DNA from: Nemertoderma westbladi
Taxonomy: Eukaryota > Animalia > Xenacoelomorpha
Assembly: GCA_032718475.1 (NCBI GenBank)
Contig: JAUCBJ010007494.1
Location: 18,243 to 82,242, forward strand
DNA length: 64,000 nucleotides
Direction of reading: 5' to 3'
The notes beneath the pieces are model-generated. The model searched no databases. It had not been told where the DNA came from and was given only the letters and a program-made list of their open reading frames with translations. The translations under genes and the position numbers were made by a program. This document shows positions 17,189 to 55,044 of the stretch, in pieces (the first letter of the stretch is position 1; every line of letters starts with the position of its first letter).

Positions 17189-17266
17189 CTGTTTAGAGTA
17201 TCTTTATGTTTTAGAAACTGTGATTTTTATATTTTATAGACTGAAAATCCCATTTTCTGGGAGCGG

Positions 17267-26300: not shown

Positions 26301-28851
26301 GGAGCCACAGCGGGTGGTATATGGAGGAGCAGTTGGAAAGGGCTGAGTCTGGTGGAAGGGTGGAGCTGGAGCCACAGTGGGTGGTATAGAGAGGATTAGT
26401 TGGATTGGGCTGAGGCTGGTGGAAGGGTGGAGCTGAGCCACAGCGGGTGTTATAGGGAGGAACAGTTGGATTGGGCTGAGGCTGATGGAAAAGTGGAGCT
26501 GGAGCCACTGCGTGTGGCATAGGGAGGAGCAGTTGGATTGGGCTGAGGCTGGTGGAAGGGTGGAGCTGGATCCACAGCGGGTGGTATAGGGAGGAGCAGT
26601 TGGATAAAGCTGAGGTTGGTGGAAGGGTGGAGCTGGAGCTACAGCGGGTGGTATAGGGAGGATCAGTTGGATTGGGCAGAGGCTGGTGGAAAGGTGGAGC
26701 TGGCGCCACAGCGGGTGGTATAAGGAGGAGCAGTTGGATTGGGCTGAGGCTGGTGGAAGGGTGGAGCTGGATCCACAACGGGTGGTATTGGGAGGAACAG
26801 TTGGATAGGGCTGAGGCTGGTGGAAGGGTGGACCTGGATCCACAGCGGGTGGTATAGGGAGGAGCAGTTGGATAGGGCTGAGGCTGGTGGAAGGGTGGAG
26901 CTGAGCCACAGCGGGTGTTATAGGGAAGAGCAGTTGGATTGAGCTGCGGCTGGTGGAAGGGTGGAGCTGTAGCAACAGCGGGTGTTATAGGGAGGAGCAA
27001 TTGGATAGGGCTGAGGCTGGTGGAAGGGTGGAGCTGGAGCTACATCGGGTGGTATAGGGAGGATCAGTTGGATTGGGCTGAGGATGGTGGAAGGGTGGAG
27101 CTGGATCCACAGCGGGTGGTATAGGGAGGAGCAGTTGGATAGGGCTGAGGCTGGTGGAAGGGTGGAGCTGGAGCTACAGCGGGTGGTATAGGGAGGAGCA
27201 GTTGGATTGGGCTGAGGCTGGTGGAAGGGTGGAGCTGGAGCCCCAGCGGGTGGTATAGGGAGGAGCAGTTGGATTGGGCTGTGGCTGGTGGAAGGGTGGA
27301 GCTGGAGCCACAGAAGGTGTTATAGGTAGGAGCAGTTGGATTGAGCTAAAGCTGGTGGAGCTGGAGCCACAGCGGGTGTTATAGGGATGGGGCAGTTGGA
27401 TTGGGCTGAGGCTGGTGGAAGGGTGGAGCTTGAGCCACAGCGGGTGGTATAGGGAGGAGCAGTTGGATTGGGCTGAGGCTCGTGGGAGGGTGGAGCTGGA
27501 GCCACAGCGGGTGGTATAGAGAGGAGCAGTTGGATTGTGCAGAGGCTGGTGGAAGGGTGGAGCTGGAGCCACAGCGGGCGGTATAGGGAGGAGCAGTTGG
27601 ATTGGACTGAAGCTGGTGGAGCTGGAGCCACAGCGGGTGTTATTGGGCGGAGCAGTTGGATTGGGCTGAGGCTGGTGGAAGGGTGGAGCTGGAGCTACAG
27701 CGGGTGGTATAGGGAGGATCAGTTGGATTGGGCTGTGGCTGGTGGAATGGTGGAGCTGGATCCACAGCGGGTGGTATAGGGAGGAGCAGTTGGATAGGGC
27801 TGAGGCTGGTGGAAGGGTGGAGCTGGAGCTACAGCGGGTGGTATAGGAAGAATCAGTTGGATTGGGCTGAGGCTGGTGGAAGGGTAGAGCTGAGCCACAG
27901 CGGGTGTTATAGGGAGGAGCAGTTGGATAGGGCTGAGGCTGATGGAAGGGTGGAGCTGGAGCCACATCGGGTGTTATAGGGAGGAGCAGTTGGATTGGGC
28001 TGAGGCTGGTGGAAGGGTGGAGCTGGATCCACAGTGGGTGGTATAGGGAGGAGCAGTTGGATAGGGCTGAGTCTGGTGGAAGGGTGGAGCTGGAGCCACA
28101 GCGGGTGGTATAGAGAGGATCAGTTGGATTGGGCTGAGGCTGATGGAAGGGTGGAGCTGAGCCACAGCGGGTGTTATAGGGAGGAGCAGTTGGATTGGGC
28201 TGAGGCTGATGGAAAAGTGGAGCTGGAGCCACTGCGTGTGGCATAGGGAGGAGCAGTTGGATTGGGCTGAGTCTGGTGGAAGGGTGGAGCTGGAGCCACA
28301 GCGGGTGGTATAGGGAGGGGCAGTTGGATTGGGCTGGGGCTGGTGGAAGGGTGGAGCTGGAGTTACAGCGGGTGGTATAGGGAGGAGCAGTTGCATTGGG
28401 CTGAGGCTGGTGGAAGTGTGGAGCTGGAGCCACAGCGGGTGTTATAGGGAGGAGCAGTTGGATTGGGCTGAGGCTGGTGGAAGGGTGGAGCCACAGCGGG
28501 TGTTATTGGGAGGAGCAGTTGGATTGGGCTGAGGTTGGTGGAAGGGTGGAGCTGGAGCCACAGCGGGTGGTATAGGGAGGAGCAGTGGGATGGGGCTGAG
28601 GCTGGTGGAAGGGTGGAGCTGGAGCCACAGCGGGTGGTATAGGGAGGAGCTGTTGGATTGGGCTGAGGCTGTTGGAAGGGTGGAGCTGGAGCCACAGCGG
28701 GTGGTATAGAGAGGAGCAGTTGGATTGTGCAGAGGCTGGTGGAAGGGTGGAGCTGGAGCCACAGCGGGCGGTATAGGGAGGAGCAGTTGGATTGGGCTGA
28801 GGTTGGTGGAAGGGTGGAGCTGAGCCACAGCGGGTGGTATAGAGAGGAGCG
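20313..28851. repeat. 67-bp G-rich tandem satellite, about 125 units, with higher-order blocks
   Basis: Period 67 (e.g. GAGCCACAGC at 20531 and 20598); variant units recur at about 20430, 22170 and 23985. Confidence 0.98.
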
Positions 28852-30454
28852 GTTGCCCTGGTGACATTACGATCCAATCTGGGTACCAAGTGATGGGTGC
28901 CTCTCAAAAGGTAGGTGCTAAAATGCACAACGAGCAACAATGAGCAATAATGAGCACCAACGGGCAAAAACGAGCAAACACTTGGGAACTATGATAAATA
29001 CACATCATGACTATTGGATAATCAGTAAGTACAATACGTAAGTAGCTGTGTAACAGTAACTATAATAAAGTAACTTAACAGTACTCCACTATACTGTAGA
29101 TTGAAGATATACATTCATTACACAGTATAATGTATACCAGTAATATACCGAATATACACCATATCCTATGTAGAATATAGTGTCGTTATTGAACGCAACC
29201 CCCCCCCCCCCCACCCCCCTCCCCCCAGCCCAAATTTTTACACAATGCCATTTTTTTTGCAGAATGGCACCTTTTTTGACGAAAGGCAACGACATCGATA
29301 TATAACACATATATTATTTATTATTGCTCGTTAAATAATTAAATAATTAATAGAAAAAAATAATCTCCATTAGCGTTCATCCATAATGTAGTTTAACTTT
29401 AAAGAGGTGTGTTTTCATTAACCCACCAAAGACCGTTTGATTCAGGTTACACCAAGGACCGTTTGGGTCAAATTGACCCACAGTACAGTATATTATTGAT
29501 AAATATATCATTCAAAATGACCAAAAGTGAGGCATTATCAGTGTGAAAACTCATTTGCGACTTACGGCCCAGTTACTTATGCTATTTACATCCGATTTGG
29601 TTTCAATAACGAGCGTAGCGAGTGACACAACGAAACGAGAGTTTCTCATTTTGATCAGATATGTACTGTATGTAGTGCACCAGGTCCAGACCCATTACCG
29701 GCTACTGCATTATGAAAATCGCCCACGCCAGGTAAAATTTGAAAGAGAACCGCGCCAATCTGTACTGTTACGATACTGATGGTATCTGGTACAATCTGTA
29801 CTCGTTACTGTACAGTACTATTGTATGTACATAGAAATTTTGACAACTCCACCTGAACAAGCCTGTGTATAAGATGAGTTTCATAATATCATTCACGTAA
29901 GTACTCAGACTATTTACTTCAAACTGGGATTGATTAATGAGCGAAGCGAGTGACACAAAAACCGAGGACCTAAAGCTATGGGACCTAAACGCTTTGTGAC
30001 CTGATGACCTACTGCTACTGACCTAACTCAGTAACTGCCTAAAGTATACAGATGTGTGGACCTAACGCTACCAGGCTGCCAGGCTACATTGTCCACAAAA
30101 GAGATTCTCAAAAATGTTTCCATTTCAAGCACAACTTTTATATATTAGCCCAATTTATTAATTTATACTGTAGGCCTATAGGCTAATGACAGACACAATG
30201 ACCACTGGTTGCCAATAGGCGGTAGGCCTAGATAGCTAGATGATATATTTATGGCTATTATAGCCAGACAGCCAGATACGAGTCAGCCAGTCCCGGTAGC
30301 TTTAGGTCCTGGTGGCCTGGTACTGTAGCTTTTAGGTCCGTGGCCTACACTTTACACAGGTTACATAGACGAGTTGAAAGGAACCAAAACTTAAACGAGA
30401 GTTAGGAATAATTTAATTGAGAATTAGGACCGATTTGGACCTAACGCTACATTA

Positions 30455-37025: not shown

Positions 37026-38656
37026 ACTCAGAGAAAATAGTTCGTCGAATTAATAATGAAGAAACATTTTATTTCATTCTACGTCTAACACTAGCAAATT
37101 TATATAAAGTAACTCAATATTCCCACTCGAGGTAGAGCCGTACTTTATAAATAAAAATATACAACATAAAAATACCGGTTAAAACAATAATTTTGATAAA
37201 ATTTGAAAATAATAAATAAATAAACAAATCGACAAACATGCTAATATTAATGCAACCAACCCGAGAATAAGTCGGCCGTTAATTAGATTGGCATTAACGG
37301 TGTATTGATTACCCCTCCGTGTTGCCAAGCAATAATTCTCTCAAGGTAATAGATGTTGCCATTCGCTACTCCATTGCGGTACATTATTTCATTGGAGTTG
37401 CATTTAATGTAGGATAAACAACCATATTATACATTTTTGTTTTGAGACGTTGGCGCTAATTTACACCGGGGGAGGGGGGGGGGGGGTTATAAAGCACACG
37501 CTACCCAATAGCGACACGTATTTTAGTGACACGTATTTTAGTGACACAAATTTTAGTGACACGTATTGAAATTTATATTACTCTACGTCCTACGATACGT
37601 GAATTATATCAAATTTTGTCAACTACACGGAAAAACCAATAAGGACATAAAATCAGGTTAATTTAGTAAAACTTTTTATTATCATATTTGCACTACTTGT
37701 TTTTTTCGTGTCCCAGGGGGCACATTCAAAATGACCAGAAATTTCAGCATCCAAAAAAACGCTACATACTACAAATAAATTTATTCTAGCGTGTCATAAA
37801 TTATGACAATTTTAGCACGAAAAATCATTTTTTATGGGTGCCAGTAAGGGACCCCAGCATGAAAACTAACTCAGCCATAAATTATTGATATATTTGAAAC
37901 AGAGACAGTTTCACCTCCATTCTCCTTGGCTGAGCCAGAATTGGCTGAGAATGGGCAACCGGGCTGGTGGAGGCCACAATAATTATAAAATTATTAGCCA
38001 AAATAATATAATTATAAACCGCAACTATTAAAAACTGTGAAATTAATATGTTTTGTTATTAAATTATATTATTATGTAACAGGTTAAAGAATATATGTGC
38101 CCGTCCCAGAGCCCTTACATTACGTGTCCCAAAATAATACAGATTACATAACAACTGTGCCATTTAAGCACTTCGGCTACTTTTAAAATCTGTATTACTG
38201 ATATACTAAGTGTAATTTACTTTAATTAATTATTTTCCCTTACCTATAATTACACTTTTATTTCATTTTAGATAATTCTACCTTCCTGGCTGAATTAAAT
38301 AAAATAATAATAATTATTATTTATTATTGCTAAATCCACAAATAAAAACGGTTTCTATGGAGAACAGATTAACCTTGGAAGCGCAAGGTTACAACGTTCA
38401 AACAACGGAAGTAGAAATGGAAGGACGGACAATACTAAGGTGTATGCCAAAGCTAACAGATGTAGTGGCTCGACCCAAAAGTCATAACATTCATAGGTAA
38501 ATGTATCAACAAAGATTTCAGCATTAGATTAAAACGAAGCATTAAATATTATTGTCATAATATATTTCGCGAATATAAATTAATTTCCTTAACTTAGAGA
38601 CAAAATTATTTAATTACTTAAAATATTTAATATTTTGTGACAAACAAGAGTTTCTG

Positions 38657-39880
38657 TGTAAAAGCTTTTGTGGGATAACTGATTCGTTTGCCTTGTTGGC
38701 CAGTTCCCCCCCAGTCGCTAAGAATACTCTCAAAGTGATCTATAGTTAAAATAGTGTAAGCTACCAGCTTATTGGCTGATTTGTGGGATGCAGGTATCTG
38801 GGCTCTGTTAATCGTCCAACTAGCCTAAGAGGGTTGCGTCATAGCCTGTTTTTGTATCTTCCAATAGAAATTTGAGTTATCCTGGATTTTAACCAATCCT
38901 GAGCTACTGAACTGAAAATTCCTATCTCACTGCTCATCCTCTGTGTTGAACGGGAGCTTTGGGGAATAAGTGTAGTTGGTATTCTCGTAGTCACGAGTTT
39001 TTTAAAGCCACGAAAGAACGGCTTATAGTGTTTTGTGCTTTTCTGCTTTTTAGTTTAACACTAGCAGGTTTAATTATAAGGACATATATCCTTTAACTGG
39101 CAAAACAAACTGCATATCATATCAAACTGCGGACTGCATACCTAACGCACGGCATACTACTGACTGCTGAAACATTGCAAACTCATAACAATCAGTGTTC
39201 AGTTGTTGTTTTATACTGCTATTTACTGTCGGTTATTCATTATATTTGTGGATGAATTATTATATTTGGAATAACGAGAAACAACCCCGAAACCCAATAT
39301 TCTTGATATACCGAAGGTAAGAGAGAAAGGTTACAGATAAACGATTGTGACTTATGTTAAAGTGGTTTGAAGTGAATTTAATGTTATTTGATAGACCCTA
39401 CATGAGTCAGCCTGTGTTCCTTTTATATGTGACTAAAATCAGTGAAGATCGGCAGATTAGTGTGCAGTATTGTGCAGCATTGTGTATGCGTGAGTCTGTT
39501 AAAGAAGCATTTCCTAAAGAATGCGCCATATATGTTAATTATAACTAAACCATATCGTTGTGAGTAGTTTAAGTCATAACTCTGTTTATATAGATAGAGC
39601 GCCACGTCCTAAAGGAACTGTTAATATTCCCGAAGGTAAATAATATTGTCAGAGATTATATAATACTGTCAGTCGAATAATACATTAGGCTTACATAGCA
39701 ATAAAATTAAACCGTCGAACCCAATCTCCCGGGAATATCCAGCGGGTGAATGGTCGCGCACGGATTGGTTTCGACTAGTGTAGTGAATCAAATATTTGTC
39801 GTAGGCAGAAAAGCGATTTAATATCTAGAAGACATCATAATTTGGTGGGTTAAACTGCCAAAGGTCTGAAAGCGCGAACA
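38657..39880 (+). repeat. 5' LTR of copy C
   Basis: TGT...ACA ends; CCAAT boxes in U3; donor-like AG/GTAAGA at 39317; AATAAA at 39700. Confidence 0.98.
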
Positions 39881-39892
39881 TTAAAGGATATA
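39881..39892 (+). promoter_or_regulatory. Non-canonical primer-binding position (TTAAAGGATATA), complementary to an LTR-internal 12-mer
   Basis: No TGG after the LTR; exact reverse complement of TATATCCTTTAA at 39085-39096; same pair in B (7976-7987 and 7189-7200). Confidence 0.6.
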
Positions 39893-40182
39893 GCTTCTTT
39901 ATTGCAGTAAGCAATAAAGTTGAAAGTACCGGTCAACCGGTAAACCTGAACGGTACATTGTAGGTCTGTAGGCCTAACTGTCATAACCGGTACCGGTACT
40001 GCTGTATAAGTACATTTAGTATTATTCGATTTTGATTGTTGTATACCTGTAGGTCTTAGTACTTAATCAGGGAACGGCCGCCCTGGTTTTTTATTGAGAT
40101 TTTACTTATTTCTGTCAAGTTTTATTTGTTTGTAGGCCAGTATTGAACAGAAGACGTGTAAGCCTGATCAGATTGTGCAGAC

Positions 40183-40745
40183 AATTTGTAGGCTGAGCTG
40201 TTGTCTGATTGCTGTTAGGTCTGAACGGATTGCAGTGTGTGTAGAGCAACTGTCCGGTTAAGTACGGTTAGGAAGTAGGGGCAGCGAATGCGGTAAGGTA
40301 AACCCCCAGCTAAAGAATAAGTCGTACTACTGGGTTAGAACGCATACTACCTAATCATTCCGGAGTCTGCATGTCCTGTAGTTTATTTAGGCTTGAGAGT
40401 AGTCTACCATCGTTTAGTCTGTACTTTGTTTGTGTAAGTCTGTACGGGTAGCGTATAATTTTATTTAGATAATTTGTAGGCTGGATAATTGTCTGGCTGT
40501 TATCGGGTCTGAACGGATTGTAGTGTGTGTAGAGCACCTGTCCGATTGAGTACGGTTAGGAAGTAGGGGCAGCGAACGCTGTAAGGTAAACCCCCAGCTA
40601 AAGAATAAGTCGTACTACTGGGTTAGAACGCATACTGCCTAATCATTTCGGAGTCTGCATATACCGTAGTTTGTTTAGGCTTGATAGTAGTCTGTCGGTA
40701 TTTGGTCTGCATTTTGTTTGAGTAGTTTGTACGCGTAGCGTAATA
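40183..40745 (+). repeat. 288-bp tandem duplication in the 2.2-kb 5' leader (also about 8240-8810 in B)
   Basis: CTAAAGAATAAGTCGTACTACTGGG occurs at 40310 and 40598. Confidence 0.9.
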
Positions 40746-42078
40746 TTTATTATTCAGAGTTTATGCGATTATTCGCAACCTTCACATTCCCCAACTTTGT
40801 TCCTACAGTAATTGTGTTTGTTATACATACCGCTATAGTTAAATTAACCCCGGTACTACACGGGCTGCTCGGCGTAGGTAAAGACTGGTGATTTTGTGCA
40901 TCGGTCACTCCAGCAGATGCCGTGGTTCTTTTAGCTGTTCAAGTATATTTAACTACTGATTATCTGTTATACAAGTACTCGTACCTAATTTAGGGTTTAG
41001 TGTACAGTAGGCCTACTTTCCGAAGTAATTAGTGTAGGCATTATATTTGTGTTGTAAAGTGGTTGATAGGCACCTTCGATTAGCTCTATTAACTTCTAGG
41101 TAGGAACACTCCGTGATACATAACGTAGAACCTATAGCGATACGGCCATAGGTCGTCAGGCGGTGGTATTTTCCTATCTGGACAACGCAGTGTATTTACT
41201 ACTACTTATTATTTTCAAATACTGTAGTACCCTGTCTGTTGTAATAACCAGATTTCTAACCCTTTGTTAGGCTGGTTTGTAGACTTCTTGTAAAATTACC
41301 CTAAAAATTCGTATTTTGTGTTTTTTGTAAATTTTTGCATTTATTTAGAGATTGTAATCTCACCCGAATTGTACGTAATTTGTAGTATTAAGTAACTTAG
41401 GTAAATTAGTATTATTTGTTTTAGTGTCCTGTACGTAACACTTCACTGAAAGCGTACCGCTTTGTGTAGTGATTACCCCAGAAATAATAACATTTGTTTC
41501 AAAGATTGACAAAACCCATTAAAACGGGTATATATATATTATAAATCAAATCTAACGATTTATAAATAGTAGGCCTACCATATAACAATTAGGTCTCAAT
41601 ATCAGTTGGATTACTGCTCAAATAACGGTAATAAAGTAAGTAAAGTAACAAAGTAACCCTAAAGTAACAGAAATTCAATTATTTGAAATAATTGATATAC
41701 CGGTATTTACGATAGGCCTATTATCTTTATTTCTATAAATCTAGGCTGAAATTATACCGGTACTTGTAATTAATTCTATTTCAGAATTATATATCCTACA
41801 AACTGTAAGCTGTATACCGGTATTCCGATAGGCCTATTATATATTTATATATATTTGTGCTAAAATTATACCGGTATTCTGTGATAAACCTAGTCTGTAA
41901 TAATACTTATATAGTTATATATACTATAAGTATACCGGTATTCTAATATATTATATATATATAACGCTACACTGAGTAGCAGTACCGGTAATTAATTACT
42001 AGGCTAGCAGTTAATACTGAGTTACTAGACTTACTCAGACTGTAATACAGCAGTAGACATTCAACGGTATACATAGTC

Positions 42079-45000
42079 ATGTCTGATACTAAGCAGAACC
42101 TGTCAGACAGTATATTAGATGTAACTATCTGCGACTCAGATAGAGACGTACAACAGTCTGGTCGTAAATTCAGTTCACCTCCCACTGTGAGGAAGGTCAT
42201 CCCTCCAGTAGTAATAACAGAACCTAGGCTAGTCCAACATCGTAGGTCTATCATAGGCACCCGAGCTCAGGTCAAGCGGGACCAACAAGCAGCGGAACAG
42301 CAACAACCCGCTAGTCAAGAACTTATTCCTCAGCGGCCCAGCAGCTCCAGTAGTGAGGATACTGTAGAGCTGACACCCGAGCGCGGAGCAGAGATGACGG
42401 ATGCGGTTTATACGGATCCCCTTCTCATCCTTCCTGCAGCCGTACTCACCAGGTTATTGATCGCGGTGGAAGAACACCAGATCGATTGGGCGAGAAGTCA
42501 ACGACCAACTAGAGATAGTTATGCGGGATACACGAGTGAAGAACTGAAGTCTATTGTCGAGTCGCAATGGAACTTCCCCGGACCCGGACTCCCGTTTGAT
42601 TTATCAGAAGCTGCCTGGGAAGACATACACCGGATGGGAGTAGCCAAGGAAACCATCGATCCAGCTGTATGGAAGAGGTCCGCAGCCGGATACGCACAAG
42701 GATTCTTCAGCTCTATGGAGCGAGTAGAAAAACAACTGTTTCAACAACCTCAAGGACCTCAAGAGCAGGGATCGCTGCTTTATCAAGTTAGAGAAAGAGT
42801 TCTGCGGATTAGGCTAATCTTATCCGCCTTTGAGGAGGCTTCTAAAAGAAGGCAAGACACGTCGTTGCAAGTTGCCGTAAAGACTTGGTTTCAACGGGTG
42901 AGTCGCCAGGTTCAAGGAGCAGCTCAGTGGAAAGCTCAGTTGGAGGAGCGCTCAACCCATGGAGAATCAACAGACGCTACTTTTTCCCAAGTGGAAAGTG
43001 AAGCGACGGCAGAGAAACCGCATAAGAGGGATGCCATTGACATCTATCTGTCAGACTATCAGCGTTTCGTAGGTGATGAAGAGTTGCGGAGAAGACTAGA
43101 TGGGCTTAGCCCTAATAGTGAAGGAGCCCAGCGTGTGTTGGATGCAATTGATGTGGATAGGTTAGCGGCGAACCAAGCTAAATTCGATGAACAACTCCGC
43201 ATCGCTAGAGACCAAGAAGAACAAGTAAAGAAAAAACGTATAGAAGATAGAAAGGCAGCGGCAGTGGCAGCAGCAGTGGCAGAGGCAGAAGCGGAAAGAA
43301 AGGCAGCAGCAGCAGTGGCAGAGGCAGAAGCGGAAAAAAAGGCAGCAGTGGCAGTGGCAGAGGCCGAAGCGGAAAGGAAAGCGGCAGCAGCAGTGGCAGC
43401 GGCAGAAGCCGAAAGAAAAACAGCAGAGGCAGTGGCAGAAGCAGAACGGATGGCATATGAAGAGGCAACCCAACTAGAGTTGGAAAATCTTCAAGAGAGG
43501 CAAGACAACTTCAATAAACAGTTAACAGCTAGTAATATGCAGATGATGAGTCGATCTACTCCCAAAAGACAGGGGTATACATCATCTGAGGAAGGCGATA
43601 CCACCGACACTGAAGGCGGAGGAAATCGACCTCGCCTAAGCAGACGTAAAAGAACATTCCACCGTCAGAAATTACCTGATTTGCCTCCAGCTGTTAGAAG
43701 GCAACTAAATAACAACAACTTAGGTAGTACAGAGCCCACAGACCAAATAATTACGATAGAAAGACTCCCTACTATAGTAGATGAGCCTGAAATAATTAGG
43801 CCTGTTCTTGAAATCACCCCTTCGGTGATAGACACACCTGTGCTCCCTGAAGCTACTTATAAATTCCCTCTACATAGCACTAAGCTACCTGTGCCCAGTA
43901 GAACTGCCCAGGAGACAGTTCAGGTCCTGGACCCCGAGCGAAATATTCCAACTTTGTCGCCCGTTGTCCCTCGTCTGCCCGCTACGACGTTGGCGGATCC
44001 CGTTTCGGCGGTTGATTGGGTAGACGAGAGACGGCGGGGGATGGATATTCTCCTCGGAGAGATGAAGGAGAATCGGAGACTCTCCTCCCAACAGGTCCGA
44101 GAGTTGGAAGGGACGGTCCAACATTTAAAGGGAACAGTGAGGGAAAGTAGGTTAGAGCTGCAAGAAGTGCAGCAAAGTATCGCGCTTGAACGCGATAAAT
44201 TAGTAAACACCCAAAAGGGTATACCACCACCCTCTGTAACAATGTGTCAACCTGTTAGGTCTGAAGTATCGCATGCGCAAGGTGTGGAGCCTACACGCAT
44301 TTATACTGCTAGCGAAGTAGAAACTCCTATAGTGAACCCTATTAAGGGTAATTATAGACCTGTTGATAATGATATTCCATATAGAACTGACCATAATCCT
44401 AGAAATTTATATACCGATAACTCGATATTAAATAGCACGATGGCCCAAGAAAGTTTTACGCGTCAAATGGCTAGAACCGAAGCCCGGCAAGCGGTAAAGG
44501 TTGGAGAGATCGTCAAGTTCAATGGAGATGAGATGAAATGGTTACCTTTTAATGAATATTACAAAGATAGCATACAGAACTCTGTACTATCTAATGGAGA
44601 AAAACTTAGATACCTCATAGAGTGCTTGGAAGGATCTCCCAAGTTAATGGCGTTAAAGTTTATTGGACATCCAGACGGATTAAGACAGGTTTGGGATACA
44701 ATAAACATCAGGTATGGTAATAGGAATAATATCGCTGGGTACTTGTATGCAAAGTTAGTAGCGCCCCGAAAGTTTATTAGTAGCGAAATTATCGAGTTTT
44801 CCGATGAGATCCAGGAGATCTGCAGACAATTAGATTGGCTAGGTAAGTCTCATGAGTATCAGAACACTATGGTTATTAGAGCAGTGGCTTCTACTTTACC
44901 TAAAGGTGGAGTAGGTACACGCTGGGATAAGAAAGTGTTATATATGATGGAACAACAACGGCGAGACCCTACCATGGCTGATCTCATGTCATTCCTAGAT

Positions 45001-48000
45001 GGAGAAGTGAAATTACAGCTCCTGAAACTGTCTAGGGAGAAAACACCGGAAAACAAGGTAAGTGAAAAACCCGTCTCTAGGAGAAAAATAACACCAGTAT
45101 GTTATACCGATGACGGCGAAAGCCAGACTTCTCAAGGAGAAGATAGCGGGAAGGACACGGATAGATCTTATTACGTGAATAAAATGCCTAAAGATCAGGT
45201 AAGTAAATTCAAGTCTCGAACAAATGACAGGAGAGAACAAGTAAGAAAAACTCCTCCCATGTCTCCCAAGAGAATTCAGGTGAGAAAGCCCGAAGAAAAG
45301 GCAAGTGTACACAATGTGACTCAGAATAAGGTAAGTAACATTAAACCAAAATGTGCGCTGTGTGACGGGACCCACTATTTGAATAGGTGTGATGAATTTC
45401 TAAAGAAATCATTAACGGAGAGACGCGAAGTTATGTGGGATAAGCGGTTATGTTATAATTGCCTCAGACAAGGACACCAACGGCGTACCTGTTTCTCGGA
45501 CATAAGATGTGCAAAGTGTGGTGCGAAACATCATATCTTGTTGCACGCTGAATTCGATCGAAATAGTCCGAATCAGGTAAGTGATTCCGAGCTACATGTC
45601 CAATTCAGTGATGTGAACGACACTGATCAATCTGAGATGGAAGGATTCTACACAGACGAGTTCTCCGACGAAAACGAATCCTGTTACATGATAAATACCG
45701 CAGTGTATCGAGCGCTCACCTATGAAAAGGATACAGACAACGACTTCAACCTAACTACTTCTGAGCGACAACAATCTTGGAAAGAGCCATCTTCCAATGT
45801 AGGGATCCGAGAGTTTCCTGTGGTGCAAGTGAGGGTTCATGGACCTAAGAGGAGTTATGTAGTGAACGCCCTCCTTGACTCCGGTAGTACAGGAACATTC
45901 ATCGACAAAGAGCTAGCCGAAGATATATTTGCTGGACAACTCAAGTTCCAAACTAAGCTCAACATGTCTGGCATAATGCAAGTTTGGAAATCTACAATCA
46001 CAGCGGATTATTATGTAGGAGCATTGTCCACCCCCCAGGACGAACTAGGAGAACATAGCATAAGGTCAGTGAAAATGGTGGCTATAAAGAACTTCGCTAC
46101 TACTCAAGCAGACCTTTATAATTGGGACGAGGATGAGAGCATCCAACATCTTAACATACCTCGATTCCAGACTGATTATCCTGGAGTGCAAATACTCATC
46201 GGCCAAAACGCGCATGAGGCGCTGGAGACATTAGAGAAACGGCCTGCTCAACCGCAGCCCCTACAGACCTATGCGGTAAGAACTAGAGTAGGTTGGTACT
46301 TTACTGGCCCTTCCCGTAGAACACTCAGAGAAAGACTACCGCCAGAGAGCGTATGCCAGGTGAGTGAATGGGAAGATGATACCAGTGAGGGAGACAACTC
46401 AACTGAGGGAATTCCATATTCCTCAGATAATGACGACGTTCACCAGCTTTTTGATGAGGAGAATACCATCGATCTCCTTAAGGAAAACGACGCTTGGCAA
46501 AACCAAGTGAACTTATGTCAACTTCTCTATCCATCTGAACGAGAAGCTTATAACGACGAGTTACATGACGTCATTGAGCGTCATAATGCCAAGATTCGGG
46601 ATGAACATGCTGTACGATTCTTTACGCAAGAGGCAGTAGAGCCCAATTCCTATGATAAGGCCTTATCAGTGGAAGAGGAAAGGGCCAAGCAGATCCAAGA
46701 GACTACCACACGTTTCATCAAAGATCAAGGTAGGTATGAAGTCGGTTTACCTTTTCGTAAGAAAGAGCCGAAGTTCATCAATAACAGACCTTTGGCGGAA
46801 AAAAGAATCGCGCAACTCCATCGACGCCTTACGGCTAATTCTTCAGCGAAAACAATGTATCAAACACAGCTGGAAAAGTTTATTAATAAGGGATACGCGG
46901 AGAGGGTACCGGAAGAAACACCTGTGACTGAAAGAACGTATTATTTAACTCACCATTACGTTCCTAAACCCGGTAAACCCAATGAAGTGAGAGTAGTGTT
47001 TGATGGCTCCGCTCTTTACATGGGTCAATCCCTTAACTCTGAATTGTTACCCGGACCCAACTTACTTCAATCTTTGTTGGGAATTCTTTTAAGATTGAGA
47101 CAATATGCGATTGCTTTCGCCTCAGATATAGAAGGCATGTTCTTGCAAGTCAAAGTGTTGGATAGGGATCGAGATAGCCTACGATTTCTATGGTGGCCCG
47201 AAGGAGACCTCAACCAGAAACCGGTGGAGTATTGGATGACCATCCAGGCCTTTGGGATAATCTCAAGCCCTTCCAATGCCTGTTCTGTAGTGCGTACTAC
47301 TGCAGAGGACAACCGAGAGGCATTCTCTAAGGAAGTGATCGACAACATCAAGAAAGACATATACATGGACGACAATCTGAAGTCCCTTCCATCAGTTGAA
47401 GAAGCCATTGAGGTCGCTAAGGGAACGGTAGAGTGCTTAAAAAGAGGTGGTTTTCGATTAACAAAATTCACCAGCAACTCCCGTGAGTTTCTGGAGTCGA
47501 TTCCTGCGGAAGATCGCGGAGCGAAAGATCTAGATTTGATCAAAGATGATCTGCCAGAAACCAAGACACTCGGCTTGAAATGGGACACAGAGAGAGATAT
47601 CCTGTTTTTCCAACTAAAACAGCGGGACAATCCTGTTCGAACCAAACGGATTTGCTTAAGTATACTGAGCACCTATTTCGATCCATTGGGATTTATTAGC
47701 CCAGTTATATTGATTGCTCGAAGTTTGGTACAACAAATGTGGCTTGAAAACCACTCATGGGATGATCCACTTAAGGGGGAGTTACTGAAGCAGTGGATGA
47801 AATGGGAAGATTCTCTACCAGCGATCGAGGAGTTTATAATTTCCCGTTCATATTTTGGTCATGTTTTCCCTACGTATTCCTATCAACTCCATGTGTTTGG
47901 AGACGCCAGCGATATGGGAATCGGTATAGTAGCCTACCTAAGAGTGGAAACTCCGGATGGAATCAAACTCGCCTTGGTCACTTCTAAAGCATTAATCAAC

Positions 48001-50247
48001 AACAAGTTGAAAGTTCCTCGAGCGGAGTTAAAAGCGGCTCTATACGCTACAGCCATCGGCCGGAATGTAACCGAACAGATTGACTATACATTAGAGAAAA
48101 CTGTATATTGGACCGACGCTTTACTCGTGTTAGAGTATATAACCAATGAAGTCTGTCAGTTCAGCGTCTTCGTTACCAACAGAGTAGCCATCATACTTAG
48201 TCGCACGACGATGGACCAATGGAGACATTGCCCCGGAACGATTAATCCAGCGGACATCGCGTCCCGAGGAGCGACTCCAAAGGAATTGGTAAATACTCCC
48301 GAATGGTTAGGCGGACCCGACTTTCTCTACCGAGAAGAAGAAGAATGGCCACCCCATCTCACAACAGCAGAGATCAGACAGGCCAAGGGAGCGGAGAAAG
48401 TTAAGCCCAAAACTCGAGCGAGTAAATCAAAGTTGTTCAAACCTGCGGTTGATCTATCTGTATTATTTACTTCCGGAGATGATGCTTTGGATCAGAAACC
48501 CACCGCCACGACGAAAGAAGTCTTGGAAATCCGTGACAAGGATTGGAAATCTGGAATACCAGATATCTCGCAAGGACTCTCACCTCTCTTGCAGAGAGCA
48601 ATACGTCACTACAGTTCCTGGAATCGGCTCTGTAAAGCCGTCACCTATTTGAAACGATGTTTTCATCATCGTTACTCCGGAACAAAGACCAATAGTGATG
48701 ATACTCCATCTACATCTGCACGAGTCCATGTTGTTAAAGATCTTCCCCAATATAAGGTATCCCACAGGTTTCTAAAGGAGAAGATCAGCTACCAGGAGCA
48801 TGATGAAACCAACAAACAGATGCTGAGACTCCTACAATGCTATGAGGATTCCGATAAGTATTTCCTGTTGTTAAGAAATCCACAGATGCGCTTAAGGGAT
48901 CGCTTCTCTAGTACCATGATAGATGGGTTAATACGTGTTGGAGGTCGGCTCACCAACGCCCCGTTATCCTTTGACACTAAGTTTCCCATACTCATTAGAA
49001 ATCTTGATATACAAATCAAGATGATTGTAGATGTTCATAGCAAACTGTACCATGCCGGTAGAGAGCGGGTTCTGAGCGAAATCCGAACTCGCTACTATTT
49101 TTATAAACCCCGTAGGGCTCTGAACCAAGTTCTTAGGAACTGCATACCCTGTAGGAAAGCATTCAGTAGGCCTTTAACGCAGCGAGAGGCAGAATTACCT
49201 AGGGAAAGAGTAAGCTTCTATGAACCACCCTTTACTAATACCGGTGTGGATTTATTTGGCCCTATTGAAGTATATCGTGCCCGGACTATAGTCAAGAGAT
49301 GGTGTGTCATCTTCGTTTGTATGACTTGTAGAGCTATCCATCTCGATATGGTAAACGATCTATCCACCAACAGCTTCGTGTTGAGTTTGCGACGACAGAT
49401 AGCTCGCTTCGGAACCAGTAACACGATGAGATCGGATAAGGGAACGAACTTCATTGGCGCCAATAACGAAATTCAAGCTTACGTAAAGGACTGGAATAAA
49501 AGACAGGTGGACGATCAGCTAAGAATAACAGCGTCTAGCTGGACCTTCAACGCCGCCGACGCCCCTTGGTGGGGAGGAAGTTGGGAGAGATTGATTAGGA
49601 GCGTGAAGACTGCGTTCCACTTTATTGTGCCTTGTCGCGCTTATCTCACCGACGAACTATTGCGGACGTTAATGGAGGAAATCGCCGCCTATCTCAACGA
49701 AAGACCGCTTATGCCAGTCTCTTCAAATCCTGATTCCCTGGAAGCGCTAACACCCGCGCACTTTCTACTGAAGAAACCCGTAGCCATGCTCCCGCAATCG
49801 GAGATCACAGACGGAGACGAGTACTGCCGTCGAACCTGGCAACTTATGCAGTTGCTATCCCGTCGTTTCGCTGACCATTTTGAGAAACATTACCTGCCCA
49901 CTCTACAACTTCGAACTAAGTGGTTTGCGCAGCAAGAAAACGTCAGCGCTGGAGACATGGTGCTTATTGTGGACCCCGATCTCCCACGTAAGCGATGGCA
50001 AACAGGACGTATCATCGAGACTTATATCTCGAGCGATGGTTTGGTGCGATCAGTAGAGCTCGTCGTCATGCGGCGGAACTTTAAGAAACCAGGGATAGTC
50101 TTTGAGACTCAACAGCTTAATCGCCCAGTGGGACGTTTATGTTTACTGGAAAGAGACAGAGAGCTCTCCGGAAACTATGGAAGGCAAGAAACTCTTCCCA
50201 CGACCACTTCCCTGATCCAACCGACATCTAGGGACTCCCCAACTTAA
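42079..50247 (+). CDS. BEL/Pao Gag-Pol polyprotein (2722 aa): Gag, 3 Zn knuckles, aspartic protease, RT, RNase H, integrase
   Basis: ALLDSGST; YLTHHYVPKPGKPNEVRVVFDGS, DIEGMFLQV, YMDD; LHVFGDAS, PRAELKAA, YWTDA, NPADIASRG; HSKLYH..CIPC, GVDLFGP, SDKGTNF, PWWGGSWERL; BEL domain order in a single ORF. Confidence 0.98.
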   Translation: MSDTKQNLSDSILDVTICDSDRDVQQSGRKFSSPPTVRKVIPPVVITEPRLVQHRRSIIGTRAQVKRDQQAAEQQQPASQELIPQRPSSSSSEDTVELTPERGAEMTDAVYTDPLLILPAAVLTRLLIAVEEHQIDWARSQRPTRDSYAGYTSEELKSIVESQWNFPGPGLPFDLSEAAWEDIHRMGVAKETIDPAVWKRSAAGYAQGFFSSMERVEKQLFQQPQGPQEQGSLLYQVRERVLRIRLILSAFEEASKRRQDTSLQVAVKTWFQRVSRQVQGAAQWKAQLEERSTHGESTDATFSQVESEATAEKPHKRDAIDIYLSDYQRFVGDEELRRRLDGLSPNSEGAQRVLDAIDVDRLAANQAKFDEQLRIARDQEEQVKKKRIEDRKAAAVAAAVAEAEAERKAAAAVAEAEAEKKAAVAVAEAEAERKAAAAVAAAEAERKTAEAVAEAERMAYEEATQLELENLQERQDNFNKQLTASNMQMMSRSTPKRQGYTSSEEGDTTDTEGGGNRPRLSRRKRTFHRQKLPDLPPAVRRQLNNNNLGSTEPTDQIITIERLPTIVDEPEIIRPVLEITPSVIDTPVLPEATYKFPLHSTKLPVPSRTAQETVQVLDPERNIPTLSPVVPRLPATTLADPVSAVDWVDERRRGMDILLGEMKENRRLSSQQVRELEGTVQHLKGTVRESRLELQEVQQSIALERDKLVNTQKGIPPPSVTMCQPVRSEVSHAQGVEPTRIYTASEVETPIVNPIKGNYRPVDNDIPYRTDHNPRNLYTDNSILNSTMAQESFTRQMARTEARQAVKVGEIVKFNGDEMKWLPFNEYYKDSIQNSVLSNGEKLRYLIECLEGSPKLMALKFIGHPDGLRQVWDTINIRYGNRNNIAGYLYAKLVAPRKFISSEIIEFSDEIQEICRQLDWLGKSHEYQNTMVIRAVASTLPKGGVGTRWDKKVLYMMEQQRRDPTMADLMSFLDGEVKLQLLKLSREKTPENKVSEKPVSRRKITPVCYTDDGESQTSQGEDSGKDTDRSYYVNKMPKDQVSKFKSRTNDRREQVRKTPPMSPKRIQVRKPEEKASVHNVTQNKVSNIKPKCALCDGTHYLNRCDEFLKKSLTERREVMWDKRLCYNCLRQGHQRRTCFSDIRCAKCGAKHHILLHAEFDRNSPNQVSDSELHVQFSDVNDTDQSEMEGFYTDEFSDENESCYMINTAVYRALTYEKDTDNDFNLTTSERQQSWKEPSSNVGIREFPVVQVRVHGPKRSYVVNALLDSGSTGTFIDKELAEDIFAGQLKFQTKLNMSGIMQVWKSTITADYYVGALSTPQDELGEHSIRSVKMVAIKNFATTQADLYNWDEDESIQHLNIPRFQTDYPGVQILIGQNAHEALETLEKRPAQPQPLQTYAVRTRVGWYFTGPSRRTLRERLPPESVCQVSEWEDDTSEGDNSTEGIPYSSDNDDVHQLFDEENTIDLLKENDAWQNQVNLCQLLYPSEREAYNDELHDVIERHNAKIRDEHAVRFFTQEAVEPNSYDKALSVEEERAKQIQETTTRFIKDQGRYEVGLPFRKKEPKFINNRPLAEKRIAQLHRRLTANSSAKTMYQTQLEKFINKGYAERVPEETPVTERTYYLTHHYVPKPGKPNEVRVVFDGSALYMGQSLNSELLPGPNLLQSLLGILLRLRQYAIAFASDIEGMFLQVKVLDRDRDSLRFLWWPEGDLNQKPVEYWMTIQAFGIISSPSNACSVVRTTAEDNREAFSKEVIDNIKKDIYMDDNLKSLPSVEEAIEVAKGTVECLKRGGFRLTKFTSNSREFLESIPAEDRGAKDLDLIKDDLPETKTLGLKWDTERDILFFQLKQRDNPVRTKRICLSILSTYFDPLGFISPVILIARSLVQQMWLENHSWDDPLKGELLKQWMKWEDSLPAIEEFIISRSYFGHVFPTYSYQLHVFGDASDMGIGIVAYLRVETPDGIKLALVTSKALINNKLKVPRAELKAALYATAIGRNVTEQIDYTLEKTVYWTDALLVLEYITNEVCQFSVFVTNRVAIILSRTTMDQWRHCPGTINPADIASRGATPKELVNTPEWLGGPDFLYREEEEWPPHLTTAEIRQAKGAEKVKPKTRASKSKLFKPAVDLSVLFTSGDDALDQKPTATTKEVLEIRDKDWKSGIPDISQGLSPLLQRAIRHYSSWNRLCKAVTYLKRCFHHRYSGTKTNSDDTPSTSARVHVVKDLPQYKVSHRFLKEKISYQEHDETNKQMLRLLQCYEDSDKYFLLLRNPQMRLRDRFSSTMIDGLIRVGGRLTNAPLSFDTKFPILIRNLDIQIKMIVDVHSKLYHAGRERVLSEIRTRYYFYKPRRALNQVLRNCIPCRKAFSRPLTQREAELPRERVSFYEPPFTNTGVDLFGPIEVYRARTIVKRWCVIFVCMTCRAIHLDMVNDLSTNSFVLSLRRQIARFGTSNTMRSDKGTNFIGANNEIQAYVKDWNKRQVDDQLRITASSWTFNAADAPWWGGSWERLIRSVKTAFHFIVPCRAYLTDELLRTLMEEIAAYLNERPLMPVSSNPDSLEALTPAHFLLKKPVAMLPQSEITDGDEYCRRTWQLMQLLSRRFADHFEKHYLPTLQLRTKWFAQQENVSAGDMVLIVDPDLPRKRWQTGRIIETYISSDGLVRSVELVVMRRNFKKPGIVFETQQLNRPVGRLCLLERDRELSGNYGRQETLPTTTSLIQPTSRDSPT

Positions 50248-51897
50248 TATCGTTCGGAGTGGGCGTGTGACTCTATTATTTTATATTCTTTTATTATTTT
50301 ATATTTATGTATGTATTACTATGTAATTTTATTATAATCGTTTTATTTAATTTAGTAGAATATTATTTTGGCGATTATTTTGTAGAATAGCGCAATATAT
50401 TCGTGTTTATTACGTACGTACATACTTACTTATATTATATTTAGTGCGACGGCGAAGAAATAATTATTTTTTCTCTTTCCTTACTGTCCGTATTATATTA
50501 TAAATACGTAACTACAGTAAGATGAAATGTCTGTACTTATTAAAGTACAATAAAGCCACTACTATATTTAAGTATTATTGGTAGGCAGAGTATTAGGAAT
50601 GCAAAGTTCAGATCCTCGTGTCTCGGCTAAACCAAGCTCTGGGTAGACCTTGGAAACGACTTGCCTCTTCACACTGACATTGCTTCGTGCGATATTGCTC
50701 TCATACCGTATATTAAATAATACATATAGTAGCGTGATGTCCCTTTAACAGTAGCGTATAATGCAAAATAAATCTGATAAACCCTTTGACCATCTGTAAT
50801 TCTAGTCGATTAAGATATCGCGGCACCCACCGATATACTTGAAAGACAAATTCTAGAATCAGTGGTTAACGTCCCCAGACAAGTTCTGGAATAAATCGGT
50901 GCCCATCTCAAATATTAATTATTTAATATTTGCAAATCAAATAAGTCAAAATCTGTAAAATTCAGATCCTTCAACAATTCTAGTCAATTAAGATATCGTA
51001 GCATTTACCGATATTCTTAAAGAGACAATTTTCTTAGAATTAAGGATCTTGTGTCCCTAGACATGTTCTAGAATCAAAATATGTCTATCTAATTATCAAA
51101 TAATAAAATTTCAGGGAATAAATTTAAATTCATGTTTTTTAATGAATTTAATAAATTGCCATTTTACGCAATTTATAACATTCCCAAAATTCTATTAATT
51201 AATAGATCAAGGGAGCGGAGATTTATATTATTATGCGTATGCGTGTACGAAAGTCTCCCCAACATAGTCAATAGCCGATAAAATTCATAAAGTCATATAT
51301 AAACAGGACATTGACTATTAAAGAATTCCTATTAAATAACATCCCAGATCTGTATGCATTGGAATTACTCTAATTCTACCGCTAGCTTTGCATAATGTCA
51401 CCATAGCAACAACCACGCTAGAATTAGGATTGAGTTAAACTAACAATAGAAAGCTTGTCCCATTGAATAACATAGGGAATAAATAGCGCACTACTAGTAT
51501 CCAAGGATACATAATAATACAGTGACATTCTGGAAGGCATTGACTAACGGACAAATGGCCCGAATGTGTGTAGTTGTGACCAGTTGTGTGGTATTTGTGA
51601 GTTTATAGGTGAATGTTACTGCTAAAGTGTGTTTACCGTAGCTAGTCACAATCGTAAAATAACCTAACTCCCCAAGGAATACCTGAAGTACATCTAAGCC
51701 TTTGGGACGGACAGTGGAGTGACTTGTGTCGGTTATCGTTGTAGTTGTACGGCTACGTCGTTGGCGAAAGTACAGCTACAGCGGTACATCGGCGCTGAGA
51801 ATCTCTTACTGTCCGGGGGCAAGGGGAACTAGGCGTCGACGCCCGCTCGCCTAACGATATAAACTCATTATCATATTGGTGAACTCGTATAGCAGAT

Positions 51898-54800
51898 ATG
51901 ACTGAATTAATAGAAGATGATCTTGGTATCAGGGAGAGATATACTCTACCTCTACAAGCGTTTGTCGATAGCTTAATACGCGGCGACGCTGATCCAACTC
52001 CTACGGAGGACGATGGTCGTTATATCGAACCGCCAATGTCCCAGGAGCAACTTACGCGTGAATTGGATTATAGAAAGTTCACTGCTCGCTACACTCATCG
52101 TAATGGTACGTATATGGACTTCTTGACCACTGGTCATCCTATTGATTTACACGACACCGACGATGTAGACACCGAAAGGGAAATGGTTTTATTTAAATAT
52201 CATGCCCAGCGGAGTCGAAACGATAAATCGAGAATAGAACACGAGAACTCTATTCGAAACAAACTCGAAAGAGAAGACGTTGAAGAACCTGATAAACGTA
52301 ACGGTTTCAACGATTATCTAGAATTCTTACGAGAGACCTATCTCAATGTTGCTAGTCAACAAAACCTCGAAACTCGATATCCCCAAGGTATACATCCAGA
52401 TCCTATAATGGAACTCAAACGGCTCTATTTTACGATGATGTATCTTACCGCCGATCGACCGCTACCTGTCGTTCCAGATAGCTTCGAACAGATGGAGGAA
52501 TATTGTAAAACTGGAGAGCGATCACCCGCGTTTCCCCTTCAAGACGTGCGTCTTTGGTATTACTGTGACGAATGCCCTAGACCTAACCAGCAAATCGAAA
52601 GGCATAAACACCCTCTGAGACGTTGCGCTAAGCACAGTTTTACGCGATATACTTATGGGAGTTTCGAGCTTAACCTTTTCGACGTATCGCCTACGGTCGC
52701 GCGCCTTAAGCGATCATTGAATAAACCCATGATCAGAGTTCCGGAATACTCGGTCAGACCTCCCCATTCACAAGTGATACCTCAAACTCTAGATCCTAAT
52801 AGTATTACGGATCCTCCCGAACTGTACTCACTGTTCAAAGATCTAGTGTTACCTGAACAGTTGATTGGTGGCACTCCGGTAGTGGGTTCGCTGGATATTC
52901 GCCAACCTTACCTTGCTGGACTAGGACGCGGTCATTTAATATCACCGTTTAATCCCTACAACCGTCCTGGCCTTCCTCCGATCCAACCTGTTACAGAAGT
53001 CGAAGAGAGCGTGATACGAAATGCATTGGACGCTATTCGGCAGAAAATCGGGAAAGGAACTTACGATTGCTTGGAGAAACGTAAATTGCAGCAACAAGTC
53101 CAAGCGGTGAAAGAACTAGCTTTACCCCAGTTTGATAGAGAAATACAAAATCTAGAGGAGGACATCGAACGTGGACGAACCTACTCTTTACAGGAATTCC
53201 TGGACGAGCGCTTGCAACAACAAGCGGAGGAAAATCAGATCGAGGAAAGACATATAGAACTGACTGAGAGGGAAGAAGCAGCTTTAGCTCAACCAGAGGC
53301 TCAAATTCTCGTGACGGATCTCTATTCCAAAACGATCCTCCACCCCTCAATGGTTCCTCAGTTTAAAGACAAGCTCTTTGCTACGGTACAACCTCAACCG
53401 GTTAATACTGATCTCAGATCTCACGAGCTCGTTGCTGACGCTCCCATGCTACAACGCCCACCCGTAGAGGCTGCCCGTGTCGATGGCATACTTGTTGAGC
53501 CTCCGGACAATAGAGCAGATCTTGTCCGTCGCATGGTGCACGATGTTAACATACGCGCTCACCCGTTAATACTTGGAACTAAACTCGCCAAGTTAGACGA
53601 ACACAATAAGTTCATACGTTTTGAATGTTTCCGGCGCTTTCTGACTCCGTTCCGTAAAGTCGATAGTCAGTTCAAAGATCGCGCGCTGACCAAGCTCAGT
53701 CTTAGAGACTCAGCTGCGGAGAAACTGAGTAGCGCTGGATTTGCTGTGTTTCAAGACGTTTGTATACAGAACTCACATTCATCTGTTATACAAAGACCCC
53801 GAATACCTACAGGTTATTCTGTCGTGGAAATACAGACAGTGGGTCCACTTACGGAAACCGACGCACCAACTTCGTCTATGCAGCTGGAGGATGAACCAGT
53901 ATGCTTGGAATCCGAAGCGATTCAACCTACGGCTTCTCGGAGCAGTGACAATGATTATGTCATAGAGTGGTATCAAGGTCCACAGCGTCTCACAGCGTAC
54001 GATTATCGACACGCCAACTACGTTTCCCGAAAACGTTGTCGATTATGCGCATCGAGAGACCACTTCACTCCTCTAGACTCGAGCGTACCTTGTTCCTATT
54101 TCCTCGAACAACCGATGATGGAAATATATTGTGCTTATTGCCGGCTTAATAACTCTCATATATTTGCCGTCTGCCAACAATTTATGACTCAATGTCACTA
54201 CTGCCAACTTAAAGGACACGAAAGTTACAATTGTCCCTTTAATCGCGATTTAGAGAGCGTAGACGAGATGATCACCCTGCGATACATCCGAGCTTGGGAA
54301 GCGAACGCAGATTTACATTGCGAATCCAGACATCGCTATTACCCTGGACGAGCTTACGAGGGAGTTTACGCGTTCCATCCTTATCTATTCGCGTCGATTG
54401 AACAGAAAACACGCGTACCAAGTTACGAGTTAATGAAGCGTGTTGGTGAGTGTATTTCCACCAAGTTTGTCAGGAAATACCTGAGAAACGTTAATCCTAA
54501 TGATATAACCACATATCACCTGATCAATTTTATCCGTCAGGACCCTGAGTATGGCGACATTTTCGTGAACTCGCATCCTGAACTCCAGGAAGTATCTCGG
54601 CGCCCATATGAATATCGAACCCGAGAACGCGAGCTGGAGAGAACCATTAAACCGAGAAAGTTCCTCACCACTCACGGTCCACCCACCGCTAGTGTCCAGA
54701 CGACCCGTCAAGGACCCGTGGGAGCTGCTGTCCTGAGACGCGCTCTAAAGGCCGTTAGACCTCGCTCCACTGAGGTTGATATTAATCAACCAGGTACTTC

Positions 54801-54966: not shown

Positions 54967-55036
54967 CTGTTTAGAGTATTTTTATATTTTAGAAACTGTG
55001 ATTTTATATATTTTATAGACTTAAATCCCATTTTCT

Positions 55037-55044
55037 GGGAGCGG
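55037..55044 (+). promoter_or_regulatory. Short polypurine tract GGGAGCGG
   Basis: Immediately precedes the 3' LTR in all three copies, within a TCCCA-n5-TGGGA hairpin. Confidence 0.75.

Follow-up and report, generated by a model that had tools for sequence, protein, structure and literature searches.

The closest described systems are the Tf1/sushi chromoviruses, which prime reverse transcription from their own RNA. According to the accessible parts of the published accounts, the primer-binding site (PBS) of Tf1, Tf2 and Tj1 is complementary to 11-12 nt of the element's own long terminal repeat (LTR) (PMC10085805, PMC7175516, PMC4600332), the Tf1 RNA requires a three-duplex pretzel that includes two duplexes flanking the PBS (PMC10085805), and the Tf1 primer is freed by RNase H cleavage (PMC7175516). 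Element B, the retrotransposon described here, resembles these elements in having a PBS that complements its own LTR, and the bases to either side of this PBS have complements in the LTR 3' of the primer with which they could form duplexes. Unlike them, element B belongs to BEL/Pao and not to Ty3/gypsy, ~785 nt separate its primer from its PBS, and the 5'-terminal position of the primer is here a proposal. Element B also adds a covarying anti-primer and three upstream helices, which are absent from the accessible parts of the Tf1 accounts. Neither a reverse transcriptase (RT) of the Ty3/gypsy chromovirus type nor a chromodomain was found in B, which carries Pao-type domains and gave no chromodomain match. 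By analogy, B is considered to work like Tf1 and yet to stand outside the Tf1/sushi group.

According to the ICTV profile, the Belpaoviridae are tRNA-primed and their replication is poorly understood (PMC8742986). Element B shares with this family the domain set and order, a single gag-pol frame, TG...CA LTRs and a short purine tract, but it is 17.6 kb long compared with 4.2-10 kb for the family, and it has no 18-nt tRNA-complementary PBS, whereas the profile states tRNA priming. Further differences from BEL/Pao elements as described (PMC8742986, PMC3118150) are its 2.2-kb leader, its orphan ORF2, an RT that is only 38-45% identical to the best relatives, and its long branch.

As described in the accessible part of PMC3592414, the 5' RNA domain of Ty1 also has long-range pairing near the PBS, first bases engaged in a pseudoknot, and possible end-to-end pairing. 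However, Ty1 is tRNA-primed and its elements lie within gag, and the likeness is one of architecture, with no sequence likeness claimed. Retrozymes and other ribozyme-bearing retroelements, as covered by the accessible part of PMC4918200, likewise carry a structured RNA in the LTR, but element B is autonomous and has no hammerhead core common to its three variants. Within the literature covered, which comprised the accessible parts of papers outside subscription journals and Repbase notes, no account was found of BEL/Pao self-priming or of such an LTR fold. The B family points to an independent BEL/Pao route to self-priming, with extra control in the form of a covarying primer lock, and its LTR RNA may rank among the larger structured RNAs within LTRs.

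General features of element B

Five LTR copies belonging to three variants (A, B and C) are present in the window, which is the whole stretch of 64 kb of DNA that was analysed; the parts of the LTRs and of element B described below lie on its forward strand. Element B (38657-56268) is an intact BEL/Pao element of 17.6 kb. Its 5' LTR (38657-39880; 1224 nt, TGT...ACA) and its 3' LTR (55045-56268) are 100% identical, the 5-bp target-site duplication TTCTG flanks both ends of the element, and a short purine tract precedes the 3' LTR, which holds a second copy of the whole structure without the PBS. Variant C (6747-18495), from which most of pol is deleted, is nested inside variant A; its 5' LTR (6747-7975) and second copy (17267-18495) are 99.9% identical, and its PBS is the same as that of B. 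Variant A is represented by a 3' LTR (19125-20312), which supplies most of the compensatory changes described below, and an A-type PBS was not found within the window. Element B is a young, recently inserted and intact element. As a side observation, 67-bp tandem arrays adjoin both ends of the shortened A element (2304-2900 and 20322-29000), which suggests residence in satellite DNA.

A single open gag-pol frame of 2733 aa (42046-50247) encodes DUF1759, protease, Pao RT/RNase H, integrase and DUF5641 domains (PF05380, E 1e-35; PF03564, PF18701, PF17921), and its homologues are of Pao type. Its Gag-PR-RT-RH-IN polyprotein with Pao-type domains makes element B a BEL/Pao element by protein, and it also has the TG...CA LTRs, polypurine tract and target-site duplication of such elements. 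ORF2 (51883-54966; 1027 aa) contains a CCHC-like knuckle and has no detectable homologue; the homologue search returned no env-like or other family match, and all Atlas matches were below 0.8. ORF2, with its Cys/His knuckle cluster, is 85% identical in variant A across 276 aa, while 32% of the four-fold sites differ.

Identity to the nearest RT relatives is 38-45%, and the named ones come from animals, mainly marine invertebrates and fish. In an RT tree of 83 sequences, B lies on a long branch with a local support of 0.27, a weak value, so no clade is claimed for it. A pattern scan for homologous LTRs gave 20 loci in viral contigs, none with blastn likeness, and 0 in metagenome contigs, and a protein-based scan of viral contigs returned no relatives of B. 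The 80 metagenome loci with 38-45% RT identity have no LTR or ORF2 similarity to B, so the covariation evidence is confined to the three variants in the window. Public DNA contigs contain many variants of the B family.

Primer-binding site and predicted self-primer

The PBS of element B (39881-39892) lacks a TGG start and is not of tRNA type. Instead, it is complementary to 39085-39096, a predicted self-primer of 12 nt that is its exact complement in B and C (12/12 Watson-Crick pairs). The primer overlaps the 5' strands of two helices, P3 (39082-89) and P4 (39091-97), which are described below. Directly 3' of it begins a hypervariable spacer (39098-39212) whose length varies among copies; in public DNA contigs, copy lengths diverge at this same point among the variants listed (40 of 109). 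On the other side of the PBS, the adjoining leader strand (39893-39901) is an exact 9-nt complement of the anti-primer strand 39500-39508 in B and C, and competes with a local hairpin at 39897-39919.

The best initiator-like matches are at 39045-39052 and not at the primer. TTATAA at 39074, which A lacks, was for that reason not taken as a TATA box. A splice-built self-primer was also rejected, the primer being contiguous and there being no GT donor at the primer end in B or C. It is very unlikely that the primer is instead the 3' end of the RNA, with the transcript stopping at the primer motif in the 3' LTR and helices P0-P4 locking the 5' copy. The 3' copy would indeed be free of its partners if the RNA ended at the primer, and C has a TATAAA variant signal 17 nt upstream of the primer end. 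However, there is no such signal in B or A and no downstream GU-rich element, and a poly(A) tail would require trimming.

Among the 80 distant loci, 28 candidate LTR-end sites were picked by eye, and seven of these (L024, L089, L091, L062, L100, L051 and L033) have 7-10 perfect self-complementary bases, mostly directly after an initiator-like motif, although 7-mer self-complementarity in relatives can arise by chance. Another relative, L080, carries a tRNA-type PBS. Some of these distant BEL/Pao elements (L024:1374-1720, L089:1-130, L100, L062 and L051) have short LTRs with self-complementary primer sites of 7-10 nt, most of them without a TGG-type PBS.

Helices of the LTR RNA

The first-pass annotation had described a conserved multi-domain RNA of about 650 nt that occupies what it took for a long R/U5 and may position or process the self-primer, and every motif that it quoted was found at the position it gave. 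A conserved, multi-helix and primer-linked RNA is indeed indicated, but it spans ~39045-39900 (~850 nt), and its best-supported helices engage the primer segment, outside the limits first drawn.

Five nested helices (P0-P4) pair the segment 39045-39097, primer included, with three distant sites. P0 (39045-39056 with 39803-39814) starts at the initiator-like motif and is the sole helix that differs in all three variants; in an anchored register, five of its 12 pairs are double-sided across B, C and A, two of them via double transversion. P1 (39058-39064 with 39775-39781) has one double-sided change. P2 (39067-39075 with 39705-39713) has an alternative, mutually exclusive pairing, W, in which 39067-75 pairs with 39539-39551, and the changes in A fit both. 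P3 (39082-89/39528-35) and P4 (39091-97/39498-504), each covering part of the primer, have two double-sided changes each; these fall in A, whose primer sequence differs, so that the anti-primer covaries with the primer. The anti-primer itself (39498-39535) is a mimic of the PBS that is split by a hairpin, Z, and consists of P4' (39498-504), Z (39507-24) and P3' (39528-35). Upstream of P0, a weak GCC/GGC hairpin of 3-7 bp (39005-39025) is possible in all three variants.

P2', stem (i) and P1' form a predicted three-way junction almost without linker (39705-39781), the loop of which holds an invariant strand of helix a. For stem (i) (39714-27/39762-75), one compensatory change had been claimed, and the evidence proved stronger: A carries two double-sided changes (39724/39765 and 39715/39774), together with a swapped C.U/U.C mismatch and two wobble-type changes (P=0.013 under random placement of changes). 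Stem (ii), a hairpin at 39841-39862 that was also proposed to be compensatory, has one double-sided change and one change from U.G to C-G (P=0.016), and T39846C and G39847A, which are common variants in public contigs, turn both of its wobbles Watson-Crick.

Pairing between an invariant segment in the loop of stem (i) and the LTR terminus had been noted as well; the complementarity of 8/9 holds, while the segment is invariant in all three variants and hence without covariation. The suggestion that the RNA positions the self-primer fits the anatomy, since this pairing would, by analogy, supply one of the two duplexes that flank the PBS in a Tf1-type pretzel. Two such duplexes are possible by complementarity, one formed by helices a and b and the other by 39893-901 with 39500-508. 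Helix a (39754-59 with 39872-77) is invariant, and neither it nor the leader duplex shows covariation. Helix b (39761-66 with 39863-68) has one double-sided change and is mutually exclusive with stem (i), since 39761-68 pairs either with 39721-27 (stem i) or with 39863-68 (b), and the changes in A again fit both.

The remaining pairings lack support as covarying ones. In the proposed long-range helix 39345-54/39570-79, A has a C.A mismatch and no pair is changed on both sides (P=0.52), the hairpin GCATT/AATGC is only 4-5 bp long with no supporting change, and the hairpin TAATATT/AATATTG does not reach p>0.3 in all three variants.

The primer-PBS complement, P0-P4, the split anti-primer and the two PBS-flanking complements can all be read from the sequence itself as potential pairings. 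The first-pass annotation is partly confirmed, in that the structure is real but larger than first claimed, being a covarying, primer-centred LTR RNA.

Covariation and sequence conservation

Inside the limits first drawn (39210-39880), for which covariation had been claimed, 10 helices have a double-sided change compared with 5.8 ± 2.4 by chance, which is not clearly above the expectation, and in RNAalifold 2 of 193 pairs are double-sided. The covariation signal emerges once 39045-39097 is included. For the 73-pair model on an unedited MAFFT alignment, 96.3% of cells are paired, and 11 pairs are double-sided versus 4.4 ± 1.6 in shuffles (0/500) and 0-3 when slid. Per-helix P values are 0.0006-0.05 for P0, 0.11 for P1, 0.002 for P2, 0.012-0.021 for P3, 0.013 for P4 and 0.016 for b, in addition to those given above for stems (i) and (ii); as the helices were chosen from the same sequences, both the 73-pair and the per-helix tests lean favourable.

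An all-against-all scan of 23,978 window pairs ranked P0, P4, P2 and W 1st, 2nd, 4th and 5th, and among 1487 permutations the top score was reached 20 times and the top-5 sum seven times. Almost equally high scores come from the antisense strand, so the window-pair scan does not tell the two strands apart. A sense RNA is favoured by the non-Watson-Crick pairs in P0-P4, i, ii and b, most of which are G.U and none A.C. Own-variant duplexes are more stable than the cross-variant mean for P0, P2, P4 and stem (i), while for P1 and P3 the contrast is one-sided.

The comparison comprises three variants only, and B and C are 95-99% identical across most of the block, so the evidence is mostly a two-lineage comparison in which P0 alone differs in all three. 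The least probable of the readings considered is that the pairings arose by chance in an AT-rich repeat and that conservation comes from recombination or DNA-level sites. The sequences are few, the null was not exceeded within 39210-39880, and a permutation test at the level of helices gave P values of only 0.01-0.07, all of which suit this reading. The nested order, the double transversions of P0, and the G.U rather than A.C departures in the model helices argue against it, as do the ranks and permutations of the window-pair scan and the shuffle test on 73 pairs.

The U3 regions of the three LTRs are unalignable (~50%), and the last 660 nt are ~95% (B/C) and 78% (B/A) identical. Four-fold sites differ by 16% (B/C) and 26-32% (A), while block segments outside P0' differ by 1-7% (B/C), which puts the conservation of the block above the neutral rate, by a clear margin for B/C and a modest one for A. 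Among the 21 public-contig variants listed at 39690-39900, 12 lie in model helices; pairing is kept or improved by 10 of them and broken by the other two, both rare. The variants are unphased.

Most of the conserved sequence belongs to two domains for which folding gave no firm structure, one inside P4 (39213-39497) and the other between P3' and P2' (39536-39704). The first contains an invariant splice-donor-like site at 39316. This donor-like site (39313-39321) is strong, and an acceptor-like sequence lies just 5' of the gag start (~42020-42040); splicing between the two would take the PBS and most of the fold out of the translated RNA. The second contains AATAAA at 39700, in B and C only.

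Neither domain has a link to the primer, which would suit a fold that mainly serves another step (3'-end formation over a long R, 5'-3' pairing, dimerisation, packaging, export or binding of the ORF2 protein) and overlaps the primer incidentally, a reading that we regard as quite unlikely. AATAAA adjoins P2', leader positions 39898-905 are complementary to the AATAAA region, and ORF2 has its CCHC-like knuckle. Moreover, Ty1 requires CYC5/CYC3 end-to-end pairing, as stated in the accessible part of PMC3592414. However, the primer is exactly covered by two covarying helices whose partner strand is a PBS mimic, AATAAA is missing in A, and no ENE-type U-rich internal loop is common to the variants. 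For the ENE triple helix in particular, no two-sided U-rich loop was found, and runs of at least 5 U number one in B, two in C and none in A.

Predicted folds and proposed mechanism

Energy minima differ by variant (W/P3/P4/a/b in B, P0/P1/W/P3/P4 in C, and P0/P1/P2/i in A) with no shared fold, and the model of P0-P4 with stems (i) and (ii) lies 7-17 kcal/mol above the minimum before pseudoknots are counted. The folding z of the whole region is only -2.3, and sliding-window z values are unremarkable, with a lowest value of -2.9. Folding fails to predict helix a/b in C, where its probability is 0.06, and the leader duplex in both B and C (0.0-0.02).

The predicted fold depends on where the RNA starts. 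When folding begins at 39076-39085, primer:PBS pairing has p=0.93-0.99, whereas from 39052 the primer is locked in P3/P4 (p=0.77-0.95) and primer:PBS pairing falls to p 0.0-0.19. Primer:PBS pairing holds at four of the six 3' extents tested and is lost with 170 and 220 nt of leader. The best reading of these predictions is that two alternative folds exist: in the 5' copy the primer sits on the PBS, and wherever the upstream bases are there it is locked in P3/P4.

We tentatively propose, at somewhat short of an even chance, that the LTR helices and the primer complement form a two-state scaffold for tRNA-free, self-primed reverse transcription, an enlarged relative of the Tf1 pretzel. Transcription would start at or just 5' of the primer (~39076-39085), and with such a start the 5' copy of R would be without the P0-P2 and W strands. 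The 5' copy may then fold as an enlarged Tf1-type pretzel with the primer on the PBS, and the element's own RT-RNase H would cut after the primer to leave a 3'-OH. The 3' copy, which has the upstream bases and no PBS, would fold into P0-P4 and stem (i), so that the duplicate primer is kept from use or cutting, the assignment of folds to copies being part of the proposal. Pairing of the upstream strands with the 5' copy could, in addition, hold both RNA ends together for strand transfer. Such a primer lock bears on a hazard of self-priming, namely harm to the element's genome from the duplicate primer in the second repeat or from priming too early.

A start further upstream, at ~39045-39052, is possible but unlikely. 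The RNA would still be a self-priming scaffold, but the primer would be internal (nt ~41-52) and held next to the PBS by P0-P2, in the manner of an extended tRNA primer. It would leave P3/P4 for the PBS inside the 5' copy, with Gag as the probable chaperone. All three variants have a YYRNWYY initiator-like motif at the start of P0, with U3 conservation beginning just upstream, and helix a would bring the PBS to the junction of P1, P2 and stem (i). In C, the state with P0-2, i, ii and primer:PBS is near the minimum (-225.2 vs -226.7, loop penalties ignored), but in B it is 10 kcal/mol above it. Against an upstream start, folding from 39052 predicts the locked primer mentioned above, primer:PBS pairing would form a 12-bp pseudoknot, and the possible hairpin at 39005-25 lies further upstream.

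A ribozyme was among the functions first suggested, but nothing was found in its favour among known classes. Rfam gave 0 matches at E<=5 for 38500-42100 and one chance snoRNA match in A (E 5.7), and no known catalytic core is common to the three variants. By motif patterns, no hammerhead, pistol, hatchet, HDV, group I, group II or RNase P core is shared by all three; a loose twister-like pattern lies at different places in A, and resemblances to group II domain V and H/ACA were rejected by eye or pattern. It is likewise very unlikely that the RNA is a self-cutting ribozyme of some undescribed class, whose cut would fall after the primer and leave a 3'-OH, with P3, Z and P4 as substrate-binding arms. 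The size, the pseudoknots, the many invariant unpaired-looking stretches, and the placing of the primer end in a covarying three-way junction would suit a ribozyme, but besides the empty Rfam search, the acidic residues of the element's RNase H appear intact when read by eye. Known small ribozymes leave a cyclic phosphate, which is unable to prime. In a broader form, which we consider very unlikely, the ~850-nt LTR RNA would be a large machine, catalytic or conformational, of a class not yet described. It would free its own primer with a 3'-OH, needing neither a tRNA nor cleavage by protein, and its upstream helices would clamp the ends of the genomic RNA together for strand transfer.

Other repeated domains in the element

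The leader contains tandem 290-nt repeats (40175-40760 in B and 8233-8817 in C), each of which is predicted to fold into a rod-like hairpin of ~260 nt that is rich in G.U pairs and shows several consistent changes. Repeats of ~117 nt (41690-42000) are rich in the palindrome ACCGGT, which is also frequent at 39928-40000. Between gag-pol and ORF2, a ~105-nt domain is duplicated and occurs in six copies in all (50790-50900, 50968-51082, 14793-14903, 14970-15084, 4695-4805 and 4858-4970). The copies have a common predicted fold in which 4 of 32 pairs show double-sided changes, with no real Rfam match, and the domain is possibly an IRES-like element or a protein-binding element for ORF2.
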